A stretch of DNA of 64,000 nucleotides from Patescibacteria group bacterium (GCA_004322365.1 SCTS01000006.1:4777-68776), one strand, 5' to 3'; positions 2,760-63,062 are shown, numbered from the stretch's first letter. A program made the numbers and translations. The notes: generated by a model not told the origin, from the sequence alone.

Positions 2760-2789
2760 CATTCCAACATTCTCAAGAATGTTGGAATG
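2760..2789. promoter_or_regulatory. 30-bp palindrome (14-bp arms, 2-bp spacer) CATTCCAACATTCT-CA-AGAATGTTGGAATG; putative ArsR operator
   Basis: Perfect inverted repeat read from sequence. A second copy lies at 3076-3105. This one sits between the arsR stop and the next gene. Confidence 0.6.
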
Positions 2790-3057
2790 TGGTGATGAAT
2801 CCAACCAGCATACGACCGTACGGAGAGAGCGAGTGTGCCACAGTTCTTCCTTGATACTTTTTATTCAGCAAACCTGCTTGCACCAAACGACGCGTATGTT
2901 CAGAAATTGTTTTTATATTAGAACCGAGACTTTGCGCTATGCCCTCAACCGTAATCTGATCATCAGTATTCACAAGAAGCAAAATCTCAATCCGATGATG
3001 ATTTGCGATCCCTTTAAAATGTCGCTCAAGTTGTTTACTTGTTTTTCCTTTCTTCAT
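2773..3057 (-). CDS. ArsR/SmtB family metalloregulator
   Basis: 94 aa with a winged HTH (HHRIEILLLV..ITVEGIAQSLGSNIKTISEHTRRLVQAGLL), typical of ArsR/SmtB. Confidence 0.8.
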   Translation of the reverse strand: MKKGKTSKQLERHFKGIANHHRIEILLLVNTDDQITVEGIAQSLGSNIKTISEHTRRLVQAGLLNKKYQGRTVAHSLSPYGRMLVGFITTFQHS

Positions 3058-3075
3058 ATATACACAGTACTACAT

Positions 3076-3105
3076 CATTCCAACATTCTTGAGAATGTTG
3101 GAATG
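3076..3105. promoter_or_regulatory. second copy of the 30-bp ArsR-type palindrome, 19-48 bp upstream of the arsR start
   Basis: CATTCCAACATTCT-TG-AGAATGTTGGAATG. Same arms as 2760-2789 with the spacer inverted. Confidence 0.6.
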
Positions 3106-10128: not shown

Positions 10129-10156
10129 CAAGTATACCCCCTAGGGGGTATACTTG
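10129..10156. promoter_or_regulatory. perfect 28-bp palindrome CAAGTATACCCCCTAGGGGGTATACTTG; CsoR-type operator
   Basis: Read directly from sequence. GC-tract pseudo-palindrome of the ATACCC..GGGTAT type, 5 bp upstream of the csoR start codon. Confidence 0.7.
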
Positions 10157-20185: not shown

Positions 20186-20221
20186 AAAAACAGATGTAAA
20201 GTAGACTTTACATCTGTTTTT
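20186..20221. terminator. bidirectional rho-independent terminator
   Basis: AAAAA-CAGATGTAAAG-taga-CTTTACATCTG-TTTTT. 11-bp perfect stem flanked by an A-run and a T-run. Confidence 0.7.
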
Positions 20222-21168: not shown

Positions 21169-21256
21169 ACTTTAAAAAATTATACCACATCTAGGCGAAC
21201 GTTCGTTCGCCTTGGTGTGGATATTCCTGTCCCATCTATTTCGAGTAGCGATTCGA

Positions 21257-30367: not shown

Positions 30368-30750
30368 TTGCCCAAAGTATAACAGAATACCCAGTTGGGT
30401 TTTCAACTCAAATGTTTCCTCTATTTCCCAGTCTCGCTAACTCAGCTTCTGCACCCTTCCAGCCCGCTTCATCCTTTTCTTTCAAGTTACCCCCAATTCT
30501 CCCGTTACGAAAAATGCCGTTCGGGCCAATAATAAAACGATAAAACACACCTCCGAGCTGTATATTTCTTGCTATCTCTTTTCCTGGCTCATTCATAGAC
30601 GAATAATGGATTAATCAATACAAAAGGTCAAATTACCGTATTTTAATTACGACCCCACTTCCCTCTGCCTCTCACTCATTCTCACAACACACATATATAC
30701 CCCTTATTCGCACTAATAAGGGGTATATATTCAAAAAAGTTTTCCGTGAG

Positions 30751-48676: not shown

Positions 48677-50209
48677 ATGCCTCATGCTACAGACGACATC
48701 ATCCGTGCGATGCAGTCCCCTTCCTCGGAAGATCAGAAAGCAATTCAGGTGGCGTATGAATTTGCAAAAGTAGCCCACGGTGAAGAAAAAAGAAAATCAG
48801 GTGAGCCATACATCATCCACCCAACTGCAATTGCAGTGACACTCGCCAAGCTCGGGATGGACCGCGAAACAATTGTTGCGGGAATTCTTCATGACACAGT
48901 TGAGGACACGCCCGTTACCATCGAAGAAATAGAAGAAAAATTTGGTGCAACAGTGCGATTTTTGGTTGAGGGGGTCACGAAGCTTTCGAAATTAAAATAT
49001 CGCGGAGTAGAGAGGCACGTGGAAAGTTTACGGCGTCTACTCGTTGCAACTGCAAACGATATTCGCGTCATCATCATCAAGCTTGCTGATAGGCTCCACA
49101 ACATGGAGACAATTAACTTCGTTGAACCTATTGAAAAACGAATGCGCATTGCGCTCGAAACGAAGGAAATATATGTCCCTATCGCCGAAAGACTTGGTAT
49201 CGGTTTAATAAAATCACAACTCGAAGATTTAGCATTTAAAACACTAGAACCTGAACGATACAAAAAAATTCACCAATTCTTGGAAGAGCGTGGAGAAACG
49301 GAAAAAGAAGCACTCGACAGAGCGCTTAATGACCTGCGCAAAGCACTTGCTGAAGCAGGTATACGCAACTTTAGAACAGAATCACGCGTAAAAAATGTTC
49401 ATAGTTTTGCCACGAAGCTCATTCGCAAAGGCAACGACCCCGACAAGGTATACGACATATTTGCGATTCGCATTATTGTTCCAACACTTGAGGACTGCTA
49501 TCGATCATTTGGAGTTATTCACAATATCTGGAGACCAATCCCAGGACGCATTAAAGATTACATCGCAAGCCCAAAGCCGAACGGCTACCGTACTCTCCAC
49601 ACCACAATCATCACTCCTCATAAGCTGATTATTGAAATTCAGATACGCTCTGAAGAGATGCAACAGGAAAGTAAGTTTGGGGTGATGGCACATTTCATAT
49701 ACAAAAACAAAAGTCAGGGCAGCGAGCCTGGAAAAGATTCAAAAATAGGATGGGTAGGACGCTTTGTTCCATCGCTCATGAAAATGACGCGCGCAGAAAA
49801 ATCTCTCACGCAAACCAGTACACCAACACCGCGTTGGCTCACAGACTTGAATACCGCAGCAGAAGATTTTGAGGGGGAGGAAGCATTTCACGATGCACTT
49901 CGTGAAGACTTTTTTGCACGAAGAATGTTTGTGTTCACTCCAAAAGGTGATGTTATCGACTTACCTATTGGCGCAACGCCGATAGATTTTGCATACGCAG
50001 TACACACAAATCTTGTTGACCTTATGTCTGGTGCTAGGGTAAATGGAAAAATGGTTGGTCTTGATACAGAGTTACACAAAGGGGATATTGTTGAAATACA
50101 AACAAAAAAAATAGGAGTGCCTAATAAAAAATGGCTTGAGTATACAAAAACTGCATCGGCTCGTCGCTACATCCGCGCAACATTAAAGAAGAAAGAAAAT
50201 AAATCCTAG
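48677..50209 (+). CDS. bifunctional (p)ppGpp synthetase/hydrolase, short RelA/SpoT homolog
   Basis: HD motif HDTVEDT, RelA_SpoT synthetase region, TGS domain. 510 aa, with no ACT-like C-terminal region visible. Confidence 0.85.
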   Translation: MPHATDDIIRAMQSPSSEDQKAIQVAYEFAKVAHGEEKRKSGEPYIIHPTAIAVTLAKLGMDRETIVAGILHDTVEDTPVTIEEIEEKFGATVRFLVEGVTKLSKLKYRGVERHVESLRRLLVATANDIRVIIIKLADRLHNMETINFVEPIEKRMRIALETKEIYVPIAERLGIGLIKSQLEDLAFKTLEPERYKKIHQFLEERGETEKEALDRALNDLRKALAEAGIRNFRTESRVKNVHSFATKLIRKGNDPDKVYDIFAIRIIVPTLEDCYRSFGVIHNIWRPIPGRIKDYIASPKPNGYRTLHTTIITPHKLIIEIQIRSEEMQQESKFGVMAHFIYKNKSQGSEPGKDSKIGWVGRFVPSLMKMTRAEKSLTQTSTPTPRWLTDLNTAAEDFEGEEAFHDALREDFFARRMFVFTPKGDVIDLPIGATPIDFAYAVHTNLVDLMSGARVNGKMVGLDTELHKGDIVEIQTKKIGVPNKKWLEYTKTASARRYIRATLKKKENKS

Positions 50210-50261: not shown

Positions 50262-50298
50262 CTTAGAAAAAATTCACCCATATATGGGTGAATTTTTT
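50262..50298. terminator. bidirectional rho-independent terminator
   Basis: AAAAAA-TTCACCCATATATGGGTGAA-TTTTTT. Confidence 0.7.
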
Positions 50299-50420: not shown

Positions 50421-51385
50421 CTAGATAGAGAAATGTTTCAAAGAAAAGTCATCATCATTCGAAGGAGGTGGAGGTACGGAAGCGAGTGTTGAAGGCACAT
50501 CTACCATATCATTTCTTTGTTCTTGAACCTCTGAGATAGGGCTCTCCACTTGAGGCGAAATACCACGGCGCTCCATATGCGCGAGCATACCTTCCAAATC
50601 TTCTGTTGAGAAAAAATCAATGATGAGCTTTCCTCCCTTTTCCTGCGCTTTAATTTCAACCTTTGTTCCTAACGACTCTGCGAATGCTCGTTCAAGTGCC
50701 TCGATTTGAGGAGTAACATCACGCTTTCGTGCTTTCTCCACAGCAATCTCACGCGTAATTTTTTCAACATCACGCACTGATAATTTGCGAATCATAATGT
50801 CACGAAAGACTGTCTTTTGTTCTTCGGGTCTGTCGGAGAGCATGAGTAATGCTCGAGCATGACCTTCGTAAATAGCACCACCAATAACCGCTTGTTGCAT
50901 TTCAGCAGGCAATGCAAGAAGGCGAATTGAGTTTGAAACATACTCGCGACTCTTCCCCACCTTCACAGCAATTTCTGAATTGTTTAAACTAAATTCTTTC
51001 TGCAAACGATCAAAGGCGCGCGCACGGTCAATGGCATTCAGATCTTCTCGTTGTAAGTTTTCAATGATAGCGAGCTCCAAGCGTACACGGCTCTGTTCTT
51101 CAGTGGAGCGAATAATAACAGGCACCTGAGAGAGGCCGGCAAGCTTTGATGCACGGAGCCGGCGCTCCCCCGCAATGAGTTCATAGTAGGTTGAAAGTCC
51201 GCCATCTTCACGCGACTCTTCGTATCGTGTGACCATAAGTGGCTGTAACACTCCGTATTGGCGAATAGAACCAGCAAGGTCTTTCAATTTTGCTTCATCG
51301 AACTCGGTACGTGGTTGATATTGGTTTGGCCGTATTTTTTCAACCTCGACCCAAAAAATTGCATCTCCTTGGAACTGTGACATGG
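50421..51385 (-). CDS. parB: ParB/Spo0J family partition protein
   Basis: ParB box (GERRLRASKLAGL..VPVII), HTH, C-terminal dimerisation region. Start trimmed to MSQFQGD. Confidence 0.8.
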
Positions 51386-51499
51386 GAAAATTGTAACACG
51401 AACACAAAAGAAGCGTGAGATAAAAAACCATCCTGTTTCTCAAAAATTGAGAAAATTCAAAAAAAATCAACCATCTAACCTACTCCCTACCACTCTTTA

Positions 51500-51543
51500 C
51501 CTGTATAGTATAATTTAACGGTCGTTAAATTATACTATACAGG
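51500..51543. promoter_or_regulatory. 44-bp perfect palindrome CCTGTATAGTATAATTTAACG-GT-CGTTAAATTATACTATACAGG (copy 1)
   Basis: 21-bp arms; contains TATAAT on both strands; second copy at 56610-56651. Confidence 0.6.
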
Positions 51544-51701
51544 TGGAATGGCGCGGGGGTTTTAGTTTTTTAAAGTATCGAACATGAATCTCTGATGCAG
51601 GTCATTCATCTAGCCTAGTATTGAATACAGCACGGCAACTAGACCTCACTGCTCCTTTCGGGTACTCTACACGGAGCAACGCACGAGTCCTAGTTGCACA
51701 G

Positions 51702-51782
51702 GCCGGAGTGGTGGAATGGTATACACGCACGACTCAAAATCGTGTCTCGCAAGGGATGAGGGTTCGAGTCCCTCCTCCGGCA
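51702..51782 (+). tRNA. tRNA-Leu (anticodon CAA)
   Basis: Manual fold: acceptor GCCGGAG/CTCCGGC, anticodon stem CACGA/TCGTG with loop CTCAAAA, long variable arm, T-loop TTCGAGT. Confidence 0.8.
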
Positions 51783-51833
51783 CTTGCCAAGCAAGAAGAC
51801 GGAGCACACTGCATTTCTGCAGTGTGGGAGAGG

Positions 51834-51875
51834 GGCTCGAAAAGCGGAAGACGCCTCGTCTCCCTATCGAGGGCC
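51834..51875. repeat. inverted copy (D) of the tRNA-associated repeat body (GGAAGACGCCTCGTCTCC hairpin core)
   Basis: Reverse complement matches ..CCCTCAAAGGGAGACGAGGCGTCTTGAGCTCGAAA of repeat A. Confidence 0.5.
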
Positions 51876-52000
51876 AGTGTTTTTTGCAACAAAAAACCGT
51901 GAGGCGGCGATTAGAAAATCGTGCCGAGAGGCTCTGCGACTTAAGGTGAACATGGGTGAACCTTAAAGTTCTAGGTGTGTTCCCCTTCCTTCTGGCACAC

Positions 52001-52450
52001 CTATATTTTTCTTGAATTGGTTGTAATAATATTCCAATCGTCCTTTTCTATAATCAAAAGACAATCAACAGGCTCATCCCATGGTTCACGGCTTAATTTC
52101 TCTTCAGAAAGTTGAGCTGGGCTCAAAACACCAATGCGTATCCAGTCTTGCGGTAACTCCTTGAGAAATCTATCGTACCAGCCTCCGCCACGCCCATGAC
52201 GTGTTCCAAAATGATCAAATTCCCTCCCGGGAATAAGAATACAAACTTTTTCATCCGCATGTGCCTCTAAAAGCGACAGTGCAAAATCATGCGGAGAAAT
52301 ATCCTTGTCTGCAAGAATGGAGCGCCCGGAGTTAAAAATTTTATTTTTAACTAGAAACTCATGTGGATTAGGCTCATCGCCCATCGGTGAATACCCAATG
52401 ATGGCATCCGCCTCACGAAGTTTTTCAAGAAGTTCTTCCTTGTCATTCAT
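52001..52450 (-). CDS. 5-formyltetrahydrofolate cyclo-ligase
   Basis: PGREFDHFGTRHGRGGGWYDRFL is the MTHFS signature. Start trimmed to MNDKEE. Confidence 0.75.
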   Translation of the reverse strand: MNDKEELLEKLREADAIIGYSPMGDEPNPHEFLVKNKIFNSGRSILADKDISPHDFALSLLEAHADEKVCILIPGREFDHFGTRHGRGGGWYDRFLKELPQDWIRIGVLSPAQLSEEKLSREPWDEPVDCLLIIEKDDWNIITTNSRKI

Positions 52451-52458
52451 CGATCCAA

Positions 52459-52495
52459 AAGCTGAAAGCTGTAACCTGACACCTGAAAGCTGGTC
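52459..52495. repeat. heptamer array GCTGAAA GCTGTAA CCTGACA CCTGAAA GCTGG between prx and 5-FCL
   Basis: Read from sequence. Confidence 0.6.
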
Positions 52496-53138
52496 AAATC
52501 TTTCCAACCAAATCCAAATCCCCTCCTTTCAGTGTATCGTCACCTGGTTTCCATGCAGCAGGACACACTTGACCTCCGTGAGATCGAACAAATTGAGCAG
52601 CTTGAAGCTTGCGAATAAGTTCTTGTGCAGAACGGCCAATTGAATTGTCATTGATTTCCATCGTAGAAAGAATGCCATCTGGATCAATGATGAATGTACC
52701 GCGGAGCGATAACCCTTCATCTTCCATGTGTTCAAGTCCATCATTTTCAATATAGGTCCCGAAAGCTCGAGCAAGTCTACCTGCAGTATCTGACGCCATA
52801 GGGAATTCAATTTTGGCTATTGCTGGCGATGTATCGTGCCATGCTTTATGCACAAACACTGTGTCAGCACTTACGCTGACAATTTCGGTATCTAAATTTG
52901 TAAAAACCTTATGAGAATCTGCTAGTTCTTCAAGCTCCGTAGGACACACAAAGGTGAAATCTGCTGGATAGAAAAACAACACGAGCCACTTGCCTTTATA
53001 GTCAGAAAGTCGAATTTTCTTGATTTTTTCGTTGTGAAATACCTCACATTCTAGGTCAGGAATCTGATGTCCAATGCGCACCATACTCACAAATCCTTCT
53101 GCTGTATCCTCGCTGTTGTCTTTTTTTTCTTTTGCCAT
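52494..53138 (-). CDS. peroxiredoxin (1-Cys/Prx6-like, AhpC/TSA family)
   Basis: Peroxidatic Cys motif FTFVCPTE. 214 aa. Confidence 0.85.
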   Translation of the reverse strand: MAKEKKDNSEDTAEGFVSMVRIGHQIPDLECEVFHNEKIKKIRLSDYKGKWLVLFFYPADFTFVCPTELEELADSHKVFTNLDTEIVSVSADTVFVHKAWHDTSPAIAKIEFPMASDTAGRLARAFGTYIENDGLEHMEDEGLSLRGTFIIDPDGILSTMEINDNSIGRSAQELIRKLQAAQFVRSHGGQVCPAAWKPGDDTLKGGDLDLVGKI

Positions 53139-53140
53139 TG

Positions 53141-53166
53141 CAGTTCTAATGAAGCTAGTTCTAACG
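53141..53166. repeat. short heptamer-family element (AGTTCTA ATGAAGC TAGTTCTA) abutting the prx start codon
   Basis: Similar to the reverse complement of the dus leader array. Confidence 0.45.
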
Positions 53167-53192
53167 ATTATTATGATAGCATACCAGCCACA

Positions 53193-54119
53193 ATGAAAGA
53201 GAAAGTACTAGTCGTCCTTGGACCCACTGCAGTGGGTAAAACAAGCATTTCTATTGAAATCACTAAAGCACTCGGTGGTGAGGTTGTGTCTGCGGACTCA
53301 CGGCAAGTCTATAGAGGACTTGATATTGGGAGTGGCAAAGTTACATCATCTGAGATGAATGGAGTTCCCCATCATCTCATTGATATCGCAAACCCGGAGG
53401 AGATATTTTCTGTGTCTGATTATCTACACCTAGGAAGACAAGCATTGAGCGACATACTCACTCGCAAAAAAGTTCCTGTCGTCGTCGGAGGCACAGGATT
53501 CTATATTGATGCGCTCTTGGGAAATATTTCACTTCCTAATGTACCGGCAGACCCAAGCTTAAGGTTTCAGCTGTCAGGTTTCAGCTTGGAGGAACTGAAT
53601 GAAGAGTTGGAAAAACTGGATCCTGAGAGAATTAAAACTATAGATACAAAAAATCCAGTGCGCTTAATACGAGCCATAGAAATAGCACGGGCACTTGGTG
53701 CAACCCCTCAATCCGCACCAGAGGCACCCTACAATGTTTTATATATTGGACTCACTTTGCCACTCACTCAATTGCAGGAAAAAATACGCACTCGTCTTCT
53801 CGCTCGTCTAGAGTTAGGAATGCTTGATGAAGCAATTCGACTCCACGCACACGGACTCTCATGGGAGAGGATGGAAAGCTTGGGACTTGAGTATCGGTAT
53901 ATGGCACGACACCTTCAGGGACATATTTCGTATGAAGAAATGGTAGCCCAATTGGAACTAGAAATTCGACACTATGCAAAGCGCCAAATGACGTGGTTTA
54001 AGCGAAACAAAGATATTCAGTGGTTTACCCCGAACGCAGTTGATGGGTTTAATCCAGAACAGAAAAAAGAAATCCTCGCACTAACAAAAAACTTTATGTC
54101 TCCCAACTACTCCAATTAA
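53193..54119 (+). CDS. miaA: tRNA dimethylallyltransferase
   Basis: P-loop GPTAVGKTS, SADSRQVYRGLDIGSGK. Start trimmed to MKEKVLVV. Confidence 0.85.
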   Translation: MKEKVLVVLGPTAVGKTSISIEITKALGGEVVSADSRQVYRGLDIGSGKVTSSEMNGVPHHLIDIANPEEIFSVSDYLHLGRQALSDILTRKKVPVVVGGTGFYIDALLGNISLPNVPADPSLRFQLSGFSLEELNEELEKLDPERIKTIDTKNPVRLIRAIEIARALGATPQSAPEAPYNVLYIGLTLPLTQLQEKIRTRLLARLELGMLDEAIRLHAHGLSWERMESLGLEYRYMARHLQGHISYEEMVAQLELEIRHYAKRQMTWFKRNKDIQWFTPNAVDGFNPEQKKEILALTKNFMSPNYSN

Positions 54120-54145
54120 TCGGAGTAGTTGTTCCAAATATGAAG

Positions 54146-54745
54146 CTAGTCACCTTGAAATTTCACTGAACCAGGACAACCCGGTAAGCCAAGGTTCTTA
54201 TCGGCGTAATATTCATTTACCCAACGAGGCGTTTGAACTGTAGCAACAATTGAGCATAATTCTTTTGGAGATAGACCGGTTCTCTTAGCTAAATCATCAG
54301 CTGCTTTTCTTCTTACCTCAGCAAGGGGCTCTCCTGCTAAGACCAAGGAGAAAGAACGATCTGAGGGAAAGTAGTTAATCTCATAATCAAATTCGGATGG
54401 ATTGGTGCTTGTAACACTGGAATACAAAACATAAAAAACTCGATTGTCTGGTTCGGCAATAATATCAGGGCCTTTAGTAAAATCTTCTACGAACAAAATG
54501 TCTCCAGTAACTGTACGCACCTCTAAGGTGTTTGAACTCTGCACCGGCACCCCCTGTGAAGTAGCAGAAACAGGCCTTCGATCATCTTTCGTTCCAAAAA
54601 ATGGCAATGTGGCTGAGAAAGGATCTTCATTAACAATAGTTGTCTTAGTGGCGTTTGACCCGAAAGAAAAGAAATACAATATGCCCAATCCGAGAATGAG
54701 CAATAAGGCCCCGAAGGCAACTATGAGAGTTGGAGATAATTTCAT
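54146..54745 (-). CDS. hypothetical membrane-anchored protein
   Basis: Single N-terminal TM (internal start MKLSPTLIVAF..); extracellular domain of unknown function. Confidence 0.35.
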   Translation of the reverse strand: MKLSPTLIVAFGALLLILGLGILYFFSFGSNATKTTIVNEDPFSATLPFFGTKDDRRPVSATSQGVPVQSSNTLEVRTVTGDILFVEDFTKGPDIIAEPDNRVFYVLYSSVTSTNPSEFDYEINYFPSDRSFSLVLAGEPLAEVRRKAADDLAKRTGLSPKELCSIVATVQTPRWVNEYYADKNLGLPGCPGSVKFQGD

Positions 54746-54761
54746 ACGGAATAGGTATTCA

Positions 54762-55640
54762 TTAACCATTAGGATAGACCGCGCGGGGTAACTGAAAATG
54801 CATCGCATCGTAACACCTGTTTTGCATGAAGGTTGGACTACTACCCCCCCACTGATAAGGAATACCGGTCTGCCGACTGCCACAAGCAAATGCGTCATTT
54901 ATTGCTCGATAATTTGCATTGGGGACTGCACATGAACCTCCTGTATAGCTCACTATACTTCTAATGATAGGGTGCGCGTCTACAGCCATACCCTGGATAT
55001 GCCGTGAATCTGTAGCGGTGCTAGACCTCTGACGAAAACCACTCGTCACCTGAAATTGAATAGGAGAACAGGCATGAGCCGCATTGACGAGTCGGACAAG
55101 GTCAGGGTGAACTCCCGCAAGATTATCATTACGATTTGTTGGAGCAACGGGAGTTCCAGTACCGGTCACTCGAGGACGAGGGGTAGGTGCACCTGGTGCA
55201 TCAGGAAATGCGGCACTAGTTGGATTTCCCACACATGAAATGTCTGTCCATATAGCAAGACCTCTTCCGGTAAGCACCGAAAAAGTAACATTCACCAAAA
55301 GCCATGCAGTGAGGACGATACATAAGCCAACGAATACATTAATGAACACCCCGTGTGCTTTCTTTACTTGGTCTGGTTTGCTGGCTGCGGTTACATACAG
55401 GATGCCTGCATAAGCAAACATGAGTGTGGCAATAATTACTGAAAATGCAATAGCAAAGTTGATAACATTGCTCGAAAGCTCAATAAGATCGCACGCTCTG
55501 CAGAGTGCTCCCTCACACTGAGGAACTAATCCCCCACCACTCCCACTTAAGAGTGCTGAAGGGTCTTGTTGAACTGCAGCAAATGCCACGAGTGGCATGA
55601 AGAACAGTATCGGAAGGAGAAGTATCAGTATCTTTCTCAT
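54762..55640 (-). CDS. pilin-like (TrbC/VirB2-type two-helix) N-terminal domain fused to M15-family zinc peptidase (VanY/DD-carboxypeptidase-like)
   Basis: Signal peptide then two hydrophobic helices. C-terminal S-x-H-x2-G-x-A-x-D-x-H (DSRHIQGMAVDAH) zinc motif of peptidase M15. Confidence 0.5.
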   Translation of the reverse strand: MRKILILLLPILFFMPLVAFAAVQQDPSALLSGSGGGLVPQCEGALCRACDLIELSSNVINFAIAFSVIIATLMFAYAGILYVTAASKPDQVKKAHGVFINVFVGLCIVLTAWLLVNVTFSVLTGRGLAIWTDISCVGNPTSAAFPDAPGAPTPRPRVTGTGTPVAPTNRNDNLAGVHPDLVRLVNAAHACSPIQFQVTSGFRQRSSTATDSRHIQGMAVDAHPIIRSIVSYTGGSCAVPNANYRAINDAFACGSRQTGIPYQWGGSSPTFMQNRCYDAMHFQLPRAVYPNG

Positions 55641-55794
55641 CACACAATGAGTATACCCTTGAAAAGCGGCTTTCGGCCTGTATATGAGACCTTTCCACAC
55701 CTCGAAGAACCACATATTGACTTTCCTCATAGGAAGCACATGATTTAGAGAGATAGCGCATGATTATTGGTTTTCTAAACAGAAACTGAAACAT

Positions 55795-56217
55795 ATGGGA
55801 TCGCAATACGAAGGCCGACATCGTACTCAAAAGAAACCTTGGGGTGCAGCGCTACTCGCAGCCGTCACTCTTGGCTTTGCTGGTGATGCGGGAGCGCAGA
55901 GTCAACCTGACCGAAGCTTCTACTTTAATCGTGACCCTGAGCTTCCCCTAGCGGAAAACATTAGGAGATTTAATCTAATGCAAGCAAGACGGAGGAGTGG
56001 AGAGATATCAGATGACTGCATGGAAATTATAGCTATTACAGAAAGACAGCTACGAGCAGGTCAATATCCAGAATACTTAGAAGAAGATGTCTCATCCTGC
56101 AGTGATAACGAATATAATAGATTATCAGCTCTCGACAGAGCAAACGCTAGGCGTAGAGGCTTAGCAGGGATGGCAGATTTGCCAGCAGATCGTCGAGGTA
56201 GCGGAGGAAATCCTTAA
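55795..56217 (+). CDS. hypothetical secreted protein
   Basis: Signal peptide (AALLAAVTLGFAGDAGAQS); Arg-rich; no family. Confidence 0.35.
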   Translation: MGSQYEGRHRTQKKPWGAALLAAVTLGFAGDAGAQSQPDRSFYFNRDPELPLAENIRRFNLMQARRRSGEISDDCMEIIAITERQLRAGQYPEYLEEDVSSCSDNEYNRLSALDRANARRRGLAGMADLPADRRGSGGNP

Positions 56218-56240
56218 TTACCCATGCTATGAAGTGATAA

Positions 56241-56272
56241 AAACCCGCCCACATTTAACTGGCGGGTTTTTA
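56241..56272. terminator. bidirectional rho-independent terminator
   Basis: AAAA-CCCGCC-cacatttaact-GGCGGG-TTTTT between convergent genes. Confidence 0.65.
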
Positions 56273-56566
56273 TTTATGATTCTGAATCCACCACTTTTTT
56301 ACTAGCGGAAGTGATTGCGTAGAGAGGAGGTATCCAACAGCTGGTACTAATGCGTTGAATATGAAATTACTGATGCCTAAGATCGCAAGAATAAAACACG
56401 CGACAACATAGGTGATGATAGTAATAGTGAGGATGCGAAACCAGCTTACTTCCCAAGCTTTTTCGGCTTCTACCTTCAGGTTTCGTTCCCGAATAAGCTG
56501 TACTTCCCTTTCCAATTTTTGTATACGATCTTCTGTCATAGAATCAGTGTAACTCACCCATTTCAA
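56270..56566 (-). CDS. small coiled-coil plus 2-TM membrane protein
   Basis: 98 aa; N-terminal charged helix then two TM helices. Confidence 0.4.
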   Translation of the reverse strand: MKWVSYTDSMTEDRIQKLEREVQLIRERNLKVEAEKAWEVSWFRILTITIITYVVACFILAILGISNFIFNALVPAVGYLLSTQSLPLVKKWWIQNHK

Positions 56567-56609
56567 AAAATACTACCAAACCTTTTTCCATCTTTCAGAT
56601 TTAAAATCA

Positions 56610-56651
56610 CAATATAGTATAATCTAACGGTCGTTAAATTATACTATATTG
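56610..56651. promoter_or_regulatory. second copy of the 44-bp TATAAT-containing palindrome (one arm mismatch)
   Basis: CAATATAGTATAATCTAACG-GT-CGTTAAATTATACTATATTG. Confidence 0.6.
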
Positions 56652-56764
56652 TGCATTGAGGCTCGGAAGTTAGTTCTAATGTTGATTTGAACTGTGACCT
56701 CGCTTTTCTAATGCGCTACAGAGCAAAAACCAATCAGTGTATGGAAATGTTAGGATTGTAATCG

Positions 56765-57850
56765 ATGCCTATAGATATTCTCAACCCAGTTTCTTCAACA
56801 TACATCTTCGCAGTACTGCTGTTCGTGGGGCTGTTGTTTTCGTTGAAGAAAAAAGAAAGTACGGAACTCCTCCCCCCAACCCTTTCACAAGAACTTAAGG
56901 GGTTTGCGATGCTTGCGATTATTTTGGCGCACATTGGATATTTTTTAGTAAACGACCATCGGTTTCTTTTTCCTTTATCAATTTTCGCAGGTGTGGGGGT
57001 AGACCTCTTTCTTTTTCTCTCTGGTTTCGGACTTGCACTGTCTGCTCTCAGAAAGAAGCTTTCGCCAAGAGATTTTTATCGACGACACCTTCCTAAGCTG
57101 TATATCCCTTTTTGGATAGTACTTACAGTGCTTTTCGTTGCTGACTTTCTGTTACTCAACACCACCCGCTCTTGGAGCTACATAGTGCAATCGTTTTTCG
57201 GCTTCTTTCCTCATGCGAATCTCTTTACTGATATCAACTCACCTCTTTGGTATTTCACCTTCATACTTTTTTTCTATCTTATATTTCCTATTCTGTTCTT
57301 CAAACAAAGACCACTACTTTCAGCAGTTCTGATGTATGTCGGGGTGCAAAGTGTCATGTTTTTACACCTACCTATTCTAAAAAACGTTGAACATCTCTAC
57401 CTACTCCATACCGTTGCGTTTCCATTAGGTGTAGCTGTTGCGGGGCTCTATCAGAGATATTCAAAAAACCGTGAGTACATAGAGAGTCAAATTAAAAAAG
57501 TGAGTATGTGGATCCTGGTTCCAAGCATGTTGTGCATTACAGGAATCTTTTCTTATTTTGCGTATTTCTCTGGCGTCGGTACACCATCACAGCAATATAT
57601 AAGCCTCTTGGTGACACTCTTACTTCTTATTCTTTTCATTCTCAAACCTTTTCGTATCAGCTTTTTCTATCTTTTGGGAATATACTCCTACGAGCTCTAC
57701 CTCATACACTGGCCTCTTATGTCACGGTACGACATTCTCTATTCACACCTCCCTGCATGGCTAGCCACTACGCTGTATATCCCTCTGCTTTTGGGATTAG
57801 CTTGGTTGTTGCACAAAGCGGTTGAAGTTATGTTGAAAAAGAAAAATTAG
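56765..57850 (+). CDS. acyltransferase family 3 (OafA-like) membrane protein
   Basis: About 10 TM helices; conserved His-containing N-terminal helix (ILAHIGYF); 361 aa. Confidence 0.7.
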   Translation: MPIDILNPVSSTYIFAVLLFVGLLFSLKKKESTELLPPTLSQELKGFAMLAIILAHIGYFLVNDHRFLFPLSIFAGVGVDLFLFLSGFGLALSALRKKLSPRDFYRRHLPKLYIPFWIVLTVLFVADFLLLNTTRSWSYIVQSFFGFFPHANLFTDINSPLWYFTFILFFYLIFPILFFKQRPLLSAVLMYVGVQSVMFLHLPILKNVEHLYLLHTVAFPLGVAVAGLYQRYSKNREYIESQIKKVSMWILVPSMLCITGIFSYFAYFSGVGTPSQQYISLLVTLLLLILFILKPFRISFFYLLGIYSYELYLIHWPLMSRYDILYSHLPAWLATTLYIPLLLGLAWLLHKAVEVMLKKKN

Positions 57851-63035: not shown

Positions 63036-63042
63036 TATAGTA

Positions 63043-63062
63043 TTATACCCCCTAGGGGTATT
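63043..63062. promoter_or_regulatory. CsoR-type box TATACCCCCTAGGGGTATTA (one G shorter than the locus-1 box), 8 bp upstream of the csoR-2 start
   Basis: Same ATACCCCC-TA-GGGGTAT core as 10129-10156. Confidence 0.6.

Follow-up and report, generated by a model that had tools for sequence, protein, structure and literature searches.

Several bacterial systems are known in which one small dimeric protein with a helix-turn-helix or winged helix-turn-helix (wHTH) fold serves tens of palindromic sites per chromosome, including MatP-matS, SlmA-SBS, Noc-NBS, ParB-parS and RTP-Ter. In these systems the genes next to the sites have no common theme, the gene for the protein itself may lie beside its sites, as in rtp-TerI/II and parB-parS, and the sites are 13-30 bp long, often located inside genes and confined to a chromosomal domain. 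Symmetry-derived bidirectional promoters, reportedly described by Warman et al. in 2021, are said to have overlapping -10 elements and transcription starts ~18 bp apart. Repetitive extragenic palindromes (REPs) are dispersed, hairpin-capable intergenic sequences present in hundreds of copies, two of which flank the gene of a REP-associated tyrosine transposase (RAYT) of the IS200/IS605 HUH type. A long dyad is also known from the Escherichia coli regulator PaaX, which binds TGATTC-N27-GAATCA, a dyad of 39 bp, and acts as a repressor of its own gene's promoter (PMC9493321). Here, we present an analysis of a 46-bp palindrome that occurs twice, at 51499-51544 (copy 1) and 56608-56653 (copy 2), in a 64,000-nucleotide stretch of DNA from a Patescibacteria group bacterium (GCA_004322365.1, SCTS01000006.1:4777-68776; ~43% G+C), the whole of which is hereafter called the window. 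The palindrome belongs to a family found in bacteria of the candidate phyla radiation (CPR), and across lineages its recurrent neighbour is the gene for a protein of ~190 amino acids (aa) with a PaaX_M/Cas2-like domain, which we refer to as mini-PaaX. Judging from sequence, we consider the chances roughly even that the palindromes are recognition sites of a mini-PaaX dimer and that, in the window, they gate two divergent promoter regions.

The two window copies are closely similar in their centres and different at their ends. Copy 1 had initially been annotated as CCTGTATAGTATAATTTAACG-GT-CGTTAAATTATACTATACAGG at 51500-51543 with perfect 21-bp arms around GT, which is correct, and one more base pairs on each side, giving perfect 22-bp arms (51499-51544) around an unpaired GT centre, with the core TAAT-T-TAACG-GT-CGTTA-A-ATTA and the outer arms ACCTGTATAG and CTATACAGGT. 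Copy 2, CACAATATAGTATAATCTAACG-GT-CGTTAAATTATACTATATTGTG at 56608-56653, has 22-bp arms with one C.A mismatch (56624 vs 56637) and the outer arms CACAATATAG and CTATATTGTG. The single mismatch between the copies reported in the initial annotation holds for the 36-bp cores (51504-39 vs 56613-48), which differ only by T to C at 56624, and understates the divergence of the full elements, with 5 differences across 42 bp and 7 across 44 bp. Compensation of the outer differences had been overlooked as well: the outer 4-5 bp read ACCTG...CAGGT in copy 1 and CACAA...TTGTG in copy 2, and arm-to-arm pairing is preserved in each. No comparable palindrome match was found in 100 dinucleotide-preserving shuffles of the window, which excludes chance as the origin of the palindromes, and single-strand folding gave -13 to -18 kcal/mol for each copy (z about -8.5 to -10). 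The family is represented in the 64-kb window by these two copies only, and no isolated single arms were present there.

A search for further copies, as had been suggested earlier, revealed a widespread family. Scanning one genome per species with the pattern TATAATNTAACGNNCGTTANATTATA returned at least 33 loci, most of them from three related Paceibacterota metagenome-assembled genomes (MAGs) with 8-13 strict copies apiece, and the remainder from two MAGs labelled Saccharibacteria and one unclassified bacterium, MAG labels being used here as written. A looser core, TAATNTAACGNNCGTTANATTA, retrieved at least 79 metagenome loci, and a profile search across all fetched DNA gave 102 matches representing 82 non-identical copies in Paceibacterota and other CPR MAGs; ~25 metagenome matches that shared merely the 22-bp pattern were set aside as chance or unrelated hits. 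Copy number is about 18-24 per genome (~20), and the metagenome bin Ga0207952, for instance, holds 18 copies on four contigs with a combined length of 789 kb, or ~1 per 40 kb. Copies are spread across all large contigs, and every copy examined is intergenic. Phage and plasmid collections yielded zero palindrome matches, and one match on a viral contig (L113) comprised the 22-bp core only, without extended arms. Two labels deserve comment, as the flanks of locus L004 (JAGXTH010000098.1, labelled Simkania sp.) are near-identical to those of the Paceibacterota locus L020 and the flanks of L001 (labelled Saccharibacteria) resemble those of L016; both are probably mis-binned Paceibacterota contigs.

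The positions of the palindromes are stable across genomes. Orthologous palindromes are 96% identical compared with 82% in the adjoining 45-nt flanks (Wilcoxon p = 8e-5, on orthologous pairs that are not independent), with core conservation being partly built in by the search, since loci were retrieved by pattern. All 121 comparisons of orthologous loci in which both flanks were aligned contained the palindrome, and no empty site was seen, a count biased by the retrieval of the loci via their palindromes. Orthologous copies retain private variants, which argues for vertical inheritance rather than re-seeding. The sites appear to be vertically inherited and under purifying selection, with no sign of mobility. 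The initial annotation had proposed that many copies at non-promoter locations would point to a repeat resembling a miniature inverted-repeat transposable element; such locations are indeed frequent, as described below, and the zero empty sites speak against the mobility that this would imply. Both window copies have orthologues with the same gene context in four or five related genomes, copy 1 in L018, L026/L048 and L107, and copy 2 in L003/L059, L030/L084 and L112.

Across the family, arm complementarity is at least 82% at positions 2-21 from the dyad, ~50% at positions 22-23 and at background from position 24. A 22-bp core, TAAT-N-TAACG-RY-CGTTA-N-ATTA, is common to lineages with wholly different outer arms, for example CTGTATAGTATAAT (the window's family), CCATCACTATAAT, TTATAACCTAAT, GGGGGAATATAAT and ATCCTATTATAAT. 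At the dyad-adjacent position, the left side is always a purine and the right side always a pyrimidine (AT 28, GT/AC 48, GC 5), and the two sides do not co-vary; this independence is expected of two independent half-site contacts.

The association with mini-PaaX is seen both from the palindromes and from the protein. At the loci found by pattern (L028/L061, L080, L072, L015, L043 and L046), a palindrome lies ~35-160 nt off each side of the mini-PaaX gene. L028/L061, L080 and L072 are close relatives with common arms. L015, L043 and L046 differ from these and from one another in their outer arms, which are lineage-specific, and their mini-PaaX proteins are at most 46% identical to those of the first group. 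On the protein side, eight homologues (L114-L121; 46-96% identity in the alignment) were found by sequence search and then located on contigs, and in each of the eight cases the gene lies between two copies of a palindrome of 34-66 bp. These palindromes have window-type arms with another centre (GCTATAGC or CGCTACCGTG), the ACGRYCGT centre with other arms (GTAGCAATA), or both arms and centre different (GTATCAATA...CCTATAGG). In every lineage examined the bracket has this layout, and its sequence changes with the lineage of the protein. A palindrome centre is located ~36-108 nt upstream of the mini-PaaX start codon in 14 of 14 loci, and copies away from the gene were found in three or more other lineages (L044/L100, L039/L092, L123:14481). 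In two related genomes only, a gene for a 103-aa protein is also found between two window-type palindromes (L021:7082-7611, L029:573-1091); this protein has zero family matches and no wider association with the element. In the literature, we found no description of the palindrome or of the mini-PaaX family in CPR bacteria.

The mini-PaaX homologues are 187-211 aa long, give 491 matches at E <= 1e-5, and match PaaX_M (PF20803) at E = 6e-20. An AF2 model (predicted local distance difference test score of 72) features a wHTH followed by a beta-alpha-beta-beta-alpha-beta domain, and the top Foldseek match is E. coli PaaX (8a39, E = 1.8e-6), followed by 3l09 and Rv0674, with further structural matches to winged helices of the ArsR, SqrR, HlyU and AspA type and to Cas2. 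With respect to the TIGR02277 PaaX equivalog, mini-PaaX scores 48.6 bits and does not reach the cut-off of 264.55, and the C-terminal PaaX domain (PaaX_C) has no match in it. The NCBI cas2 cut-off is passed (29.8 vs 24.5), an invariant Asp is present in the VFDI strand of the Cas2-like domain, and the Pfam matches of the gene comprise PaaX_M, Cas2 and, weakly, EarA only.

In several ways mini-PaaX and its sites recall PaaX. The protein shares the N-terminal wHTH and the central Cas2-like domain (PF20803), 8a39 and 3l09 rank best among its sequence and fold matches, a palindrome lies upstream of its own gene at every one of the 14 loci, and the 39-bp dyad of PaaX offers a precedent for the long-dyad geometry. 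The differences are equally clear, as PaaX is 316 aa long, neither TGATTC nor GAATCA is present in the window palindromes, whose sequence is unrelated, and palindromy and conservation extend over the full 44-46 bp here, compared with two hexamers for PaaX. In addition, each genome has ~20 sites, which occupy every type of intergenic region, and no paa genes are found among the annotated neighbours. With regard to the MatP-matS type of system, the sites studied here differ in being 46 bp long, strictly intergenic and present on all large contigs.

A parallel to the mini-PaaX bracket exists within the window itself. A second duplicated perfect palindrome, ACATTCCAACATTCT-NN-AGAATGTTGGAATGT, is located at 2759-2790 and 3076-3105, and the pair encloses a 94-aa regulator of the ArsR/SmtB family (2773-3057, minus strand), of which the two palindromes are probably the own operators. 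The same layout around an ordinary ArsR-family factor supports the view that mini-PaaX, too, is a regulator bracketed by its operators.

Both window copies are located between divergent genes, in agreement with the promoter-type positions (parB/tRNA-Leu and before the acyltransferase-3 gene) given in the initial annotation. Copy 1 lies between a parB-type gene (50421-51470, minus strand; ParB_N, HTH_ParB and ParB_C), the start codon of which is 28-55 nt from the palindrome and the orthologues of which begin at the equivalent of 51443, and tRNA-Leu (CAA) (51702-51783, plus strand), 157 nt downstream. Copy 2 lies between an open reading frame (ORF) for a 98-aa predicted membrane protein (56270-56566, minus strand), 41 nt away, and the Acyl_transf_3 gene (56765-57850, plus strand), 111 nt downstream; the 98-aa protein is conserved in relatives, has zero family matches and lacks any wider association with the palindromes. 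TATAAT is present in both arms of both copies, hence on both strands, as had been stated. In copy 1, the candidate -10 hexamer of the left arm (51509-51514, plus strand) faces tRNA-Leu, with a predicted start at ~51521 near the dyad, and that of the right arm (51529-51534, minus strand) faces parB. In copy 2, the left-arm hexamer (56618-56623, plus strand) faces the acyltransferase gene and has a TTCAGA partner at 18 bp (10/12 matches), and the right-arm hexamer (56638-56643, minus strand) faces the 98-aa ORF. The description of these hexamers as extended -10-like did not hold, because positions -15/-14 read TA and the canonical TGn is missing. A -35 partner was sought for copy 1 and none was found, and the number of -35/-10 sites in copy 2 is within shuffle expectation. 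The arm hexamers are the sole consensus TATAAT in the two divergent intergenic regions, and for this reason promoter occlusion in the window stays plausible.

If mini-PaaX binds as proposed, each window site would cover the only consensus -10-like hexamers of its divergent region, and transcription starts would fall at the dyad. The hexamers share with symmetry-derived bidirectional promoters their presence on both strands of a short symmetric segment between divergent genes, and differ in facing each other 14 bp apart, so that the predicted starts coincide at the dyad; in the family studied here, moreover, the hexamer is not conserved and many copies lie upstream of no gene. Since the sole TATAAT hexamers are within the site and the predicted starts are at the dyad, a bound mini-PaaX dimer would exclude RNA polymerase in both directions. 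Occupancy of copy 1 would affect parB and a tRNA-Leu transcript with a 180-nt leader, and occupancy of copy 2 would affect the 98-aa ORF and the acyltransferase. Conservation in relatives extends to the 157 nt that separate copy 1 from tRNA-Leu (51545-51701). This spacer contains a long stem, GCAACTAGAC...GTCCTAGTTGC, immediately before the tRNA and matches no family in Rfam; its role could be that of a leader, of a processing structure or of a small RNA. Of the two options offered in the initial annotation, a bidirectional promoter occluded by a dimeric repressor or an operator for some regulator, the operator is better supported, with mini-PaaX, bracketed in every lineage examined, as the candidate regulator. 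Its binding to the sites, to duplex DNA rather than to a hairpin, and repression as the outcome are what we infer from this arrangement.

Several observations weigh against the operator interpretation. The link between protein and palindrome comes from conserved gene neighbourhood, and the mini-PaaX gene was searched for in the 64-kb window and not found, so that its presence in the genome of the window is deduced from close relatives. For 61 copies both neighbouring genes were called (using a simple greedy ORF picker, with Pfam-confirmed neighbours in several of the convergent cases), and of these 18 are convergent, 30 tandem and 13 divergent, a split of ~1:2:1 as expected if the sites were blind to gene orientation. 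Approximately 30% of the copies are thus between convergent genes, where a classical operator controls nothing. The neighbours also have no functional theme and form a housekeeping mix of parB, gltX-like, pheS, murG, fmt, pepQ, glmS, polA, holA, recR and ychF genes together with genes for adenosylhomocysteine (AdoHcy) hydrolase, a glycosylase and a NUDIX protein, and a consistent placement before one functional class of genes, which the initial annotation had proposed to check, is not observed.

Further, the two arms change together. The variable positions 7, 12, 19 and 20 co-vary between arms among non-orthologous copies within one genome (JBBAAE01, p <= 0.005). TATAAT is replaced elsewhere by TTTAAT, GATAAT, CCTAAT, AATAAT or CATAAT, usually in both arms together, and the change of TTAACG to TTCACG likewise alters both arms at once. 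In L119 and L123, arms of up to 32-33 bp are reached via outer sequence private to each copy, and complementarity hence runs on into copy-specific, non-conserved sequence. A dimer binding two half-sites does not predict such arm symmetry, which would require either selection for a hairpin or cruciform or homogenisation by template switching; intramolecular template switching is a known mutational behaviour of quasi-palindromes. The operator interpretation leaves the convergent copies and the arm co-variation unexplained, and a reading based on structure, whether REPtron-like, as a roadblock or insulator, or as an RNA hairpin, is kept alive by them.

The foremost of these alternatives, which we regard as doubtful, is a REP- or REPtron-like system. 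In it, the palindromes would function as hairpins or cruciforms when the DNA is single-stranded or supercoiled, and the wHTH-Cas2-like protein would be their structure-specific partner. This partner may be a nuclease by which the palindromes are maintained or were once spread, and effects on genes would be secondary. The strictly intergenic and orientation-blind placement fits this idea, as do the co-varying arms at non-conserved positions, the stems running into copy-specific sequence and the symmetric sub-variants inside one genome. The partner gene lies between two copies in every lineage, like the RAYT gene between REPs, and its palindrome sequence varies with lineage in both systems. The Cas2-like domain scoring above the NCBI cut-off and its invariant Asp also speak for it. 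In L118 (2273-3162) and L121 (2325-3177), the normally contiguous S10 ribosomal-protein operon is interrupted between rpsJ (S10) and rplC (L3) by a palindrome-miniPaaX-palindrome module that has canonical terminators of its own. A synteny breakpoint coincides with a palindrome at L019:4184 compared with L027:2737 and L025:2848, where the flank with AdoHcy hydrolase is retained and the other flank exchanged; this hints that copies occasionally mediate rearrangement, and it is the only such case. Against these points, no HUH/Y1 transposase is present, the Pfam matches of the partner gene being those given above, and there are merely ~20 copies per genome compared with hundreds of REPs. The 121 orthologous comparisons without presence/absence polymorphism, the private variants retained by orthologous copies, which indicate vertical inheritance, and the lack of copies in phage and plasmid collections are also at odds with it. 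Compared with REPs, the sites are positionally stable across species, and the 22-bp core is common to deeply diverged lineages.

A more specific version of this idea, which we likewise hold to be unlikely, is a CPR partnership built on the REPtron plan with a different protein, a wHTH-Cas2-like and possibly nucleolytic one acting on hairpin or cruciform palindromes of 36-66 bp, whose gene is always bracketed and whose ~20 copies at fixed intergenic positions would be orientation-independent boundaries of transcription units or sites of genome architecture, with palindromy itself being selected.

An RNA hairpin is improbable in our assessment, although several features would suit it. A 20-22-bp stem transcribed in either direction could be a processing site of the RNase III type, stabilise the transcript or bind a protein in an untranslated region, and since either transcript orientation gives the same hairpin, orientation indifference would follow. 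The arms co-vary, the predicted stems are very stable, and the downstream copy in L121 follows the stop codon and precedes a canonical terminator, so that it would be transcribed. In tandem contexts, G.U exceeds A.C among sense-strand mismatches by 9 to 4, but this excess is not significant and 15 transversion mismatches occur too. Moreover, T-runs past the stem are independent of incoming transcription (means of 4.04 vs 4.06, p = 0.97), near-invariance over 22-36 bp is not needed for an RNA stem alone, and zero Rfam family matches were obtained; both window copies, lying between divergent genes, would be transcribed only if promoters lie beyond them.

A sigma-70 promoter that works in both directions on its own, through -10 hexamers facing each other and with no dedicated binding protein, has a poor prospect as a general explanation, and the promoter option of the initial annotation is not supported as a general function. 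It would account for TATAAT on both strands of both window copies, each between divergent genes and with the sole consensus hexamers of its region, and TAATNT, which satisfies the TAnnnT rule, is found in every retrieved copy, but is fixed by the search pattern. A conserved -10 with a -35 at 16-18 bp is not found in the family, where TTTAAT, GATAAT and CCTAAT variants alter both arms and copy 1 has no -35 element. A gene downstream on at least one side is present for both window copies and is lacking in the 18 of 61 copies that lie between convergent genes. Single arms are never found alone, co-varying arms and extended stems are not required by a promoter, and the constant bracketing of one gene family would be unexplained. 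A lox- or dif-like core site of a site-specific recombinase, with inverted arms around a 6-bp CGRYCG spacer, is exceedingly improbable, since the geometry resembling 13-bp arms and a 6-8-bp spacer, the central dinucleotide as the only asymmetric part that flips between orthologues (GT, AT or AC) and the one rearrangement breakpoint are opposed by the lack of an adjacent recombinase gene among annotated neighbours and by synteny kept on both sides nearly everywhere, where ~20 dispersed active sites would scramble the genome.

Other identities were considered and rejected. Intrinsic terminators are dismissed on account of the A+T-rich stems (25-35% G+C) and the T-runs that are independent of incoming transcription, and because canonical G+C-rich terminators with A/T flanks sit beside the palindromes; the only terminator-like call was made for the minus strand of copy 2, and no gene is oriented so as to be read into it. 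For parS, TGTTNCACGTGNAACA is absent from the window with up to 3 mismatches allowed, the palindromes are on all large contigs, and adjacency to parB is found at this single orthologous site only. Apart from tRNAs, Rfam searches, whether run in gathering or in E-value mode, returned nothing but meaningless matches to miRNA hairpins, an association with tRNA genes is confined to the one orthologous tRNA-Leu site, and restriction-site avoidance is not indicated, as the CGRYCG centre is not depleted (23 observed vs 30.6 expected). The centre TAAC-N4-GTTA resembles the Gram-positive LexA box GAAC-N4-GTTC; zero LexA homologues were found in 1.0 Mb of palindrome-bearing loci with E. coli LexA as the query. 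The LexA motif of Patescibacteria appears, as cited in PMC7739468, to be a direct repeat.

The window also features other palindromes and hairpins. At 50267-50298, a perfect palindrome with 17-bp arms (AAAAAATTCACCCATAT/ATATGGGTGAATTTTTT) is located between a convergent RelA/SpoT-like gene (ending at 50209) and parB (ending at 50421) and, unlike the palindrome studied here, looks like a canonical bidirectional terminator. Two more palindromes, at 20186-20221 and 21185-21220, have 17-bp arms and a 2-nt centre, and their sequence is unrelated to the one studied. Hairpins at 10129-10156, 30693-30730 and ~63040-63060 have a common stem, (G/A)TATACCCC...GGGGTATA(C/T), and GTATACCCC (at most 1 mismatch) occurs 15 times in the window against 4.9 expected; hairpins of the GTATACCCC type may represent either another family of repeated hairpins or a stem favoured in terminators. 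Additionally, an ORF between the two palindrome copies (54762-55739, minus strand) joins a T4SS_pilin domain and a Peptidase_M15_4 domain, a fusion that, with the G+C content, gives the window the look of a CPR genome.

Gene regulation and chromosome organisation in CPR bacteria, including Patescibacteria, are hardly known, as these organisms are mostly uncultured and have very few transcription factors. In this regard, the present analysis offers a concrete pair, a ~190-aa protein in hundreds of CPR lineages and a 46-bp site at ~20 genomic positions. Relative to known regulator-operator systems, the 46-bp full palindrome, the symmetry at non-conserved positions, the orientation-blind placement, the constant double bracket and the wHTH-Cas2-like partner appear to be new. 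The co-variation of the arms further raises the question of whether long palindromes in small genomes are kept by selection on DNA or RNA structure or by template-switch homogenisation. Should the proposed binding be true, mini-PaaX could belong to the small number of global DNA-binding factors that CPR bacteria have, and the PaaX/Cas2-like fold would gain a role unrelated to phenylacetate catabolism or CRISPR.

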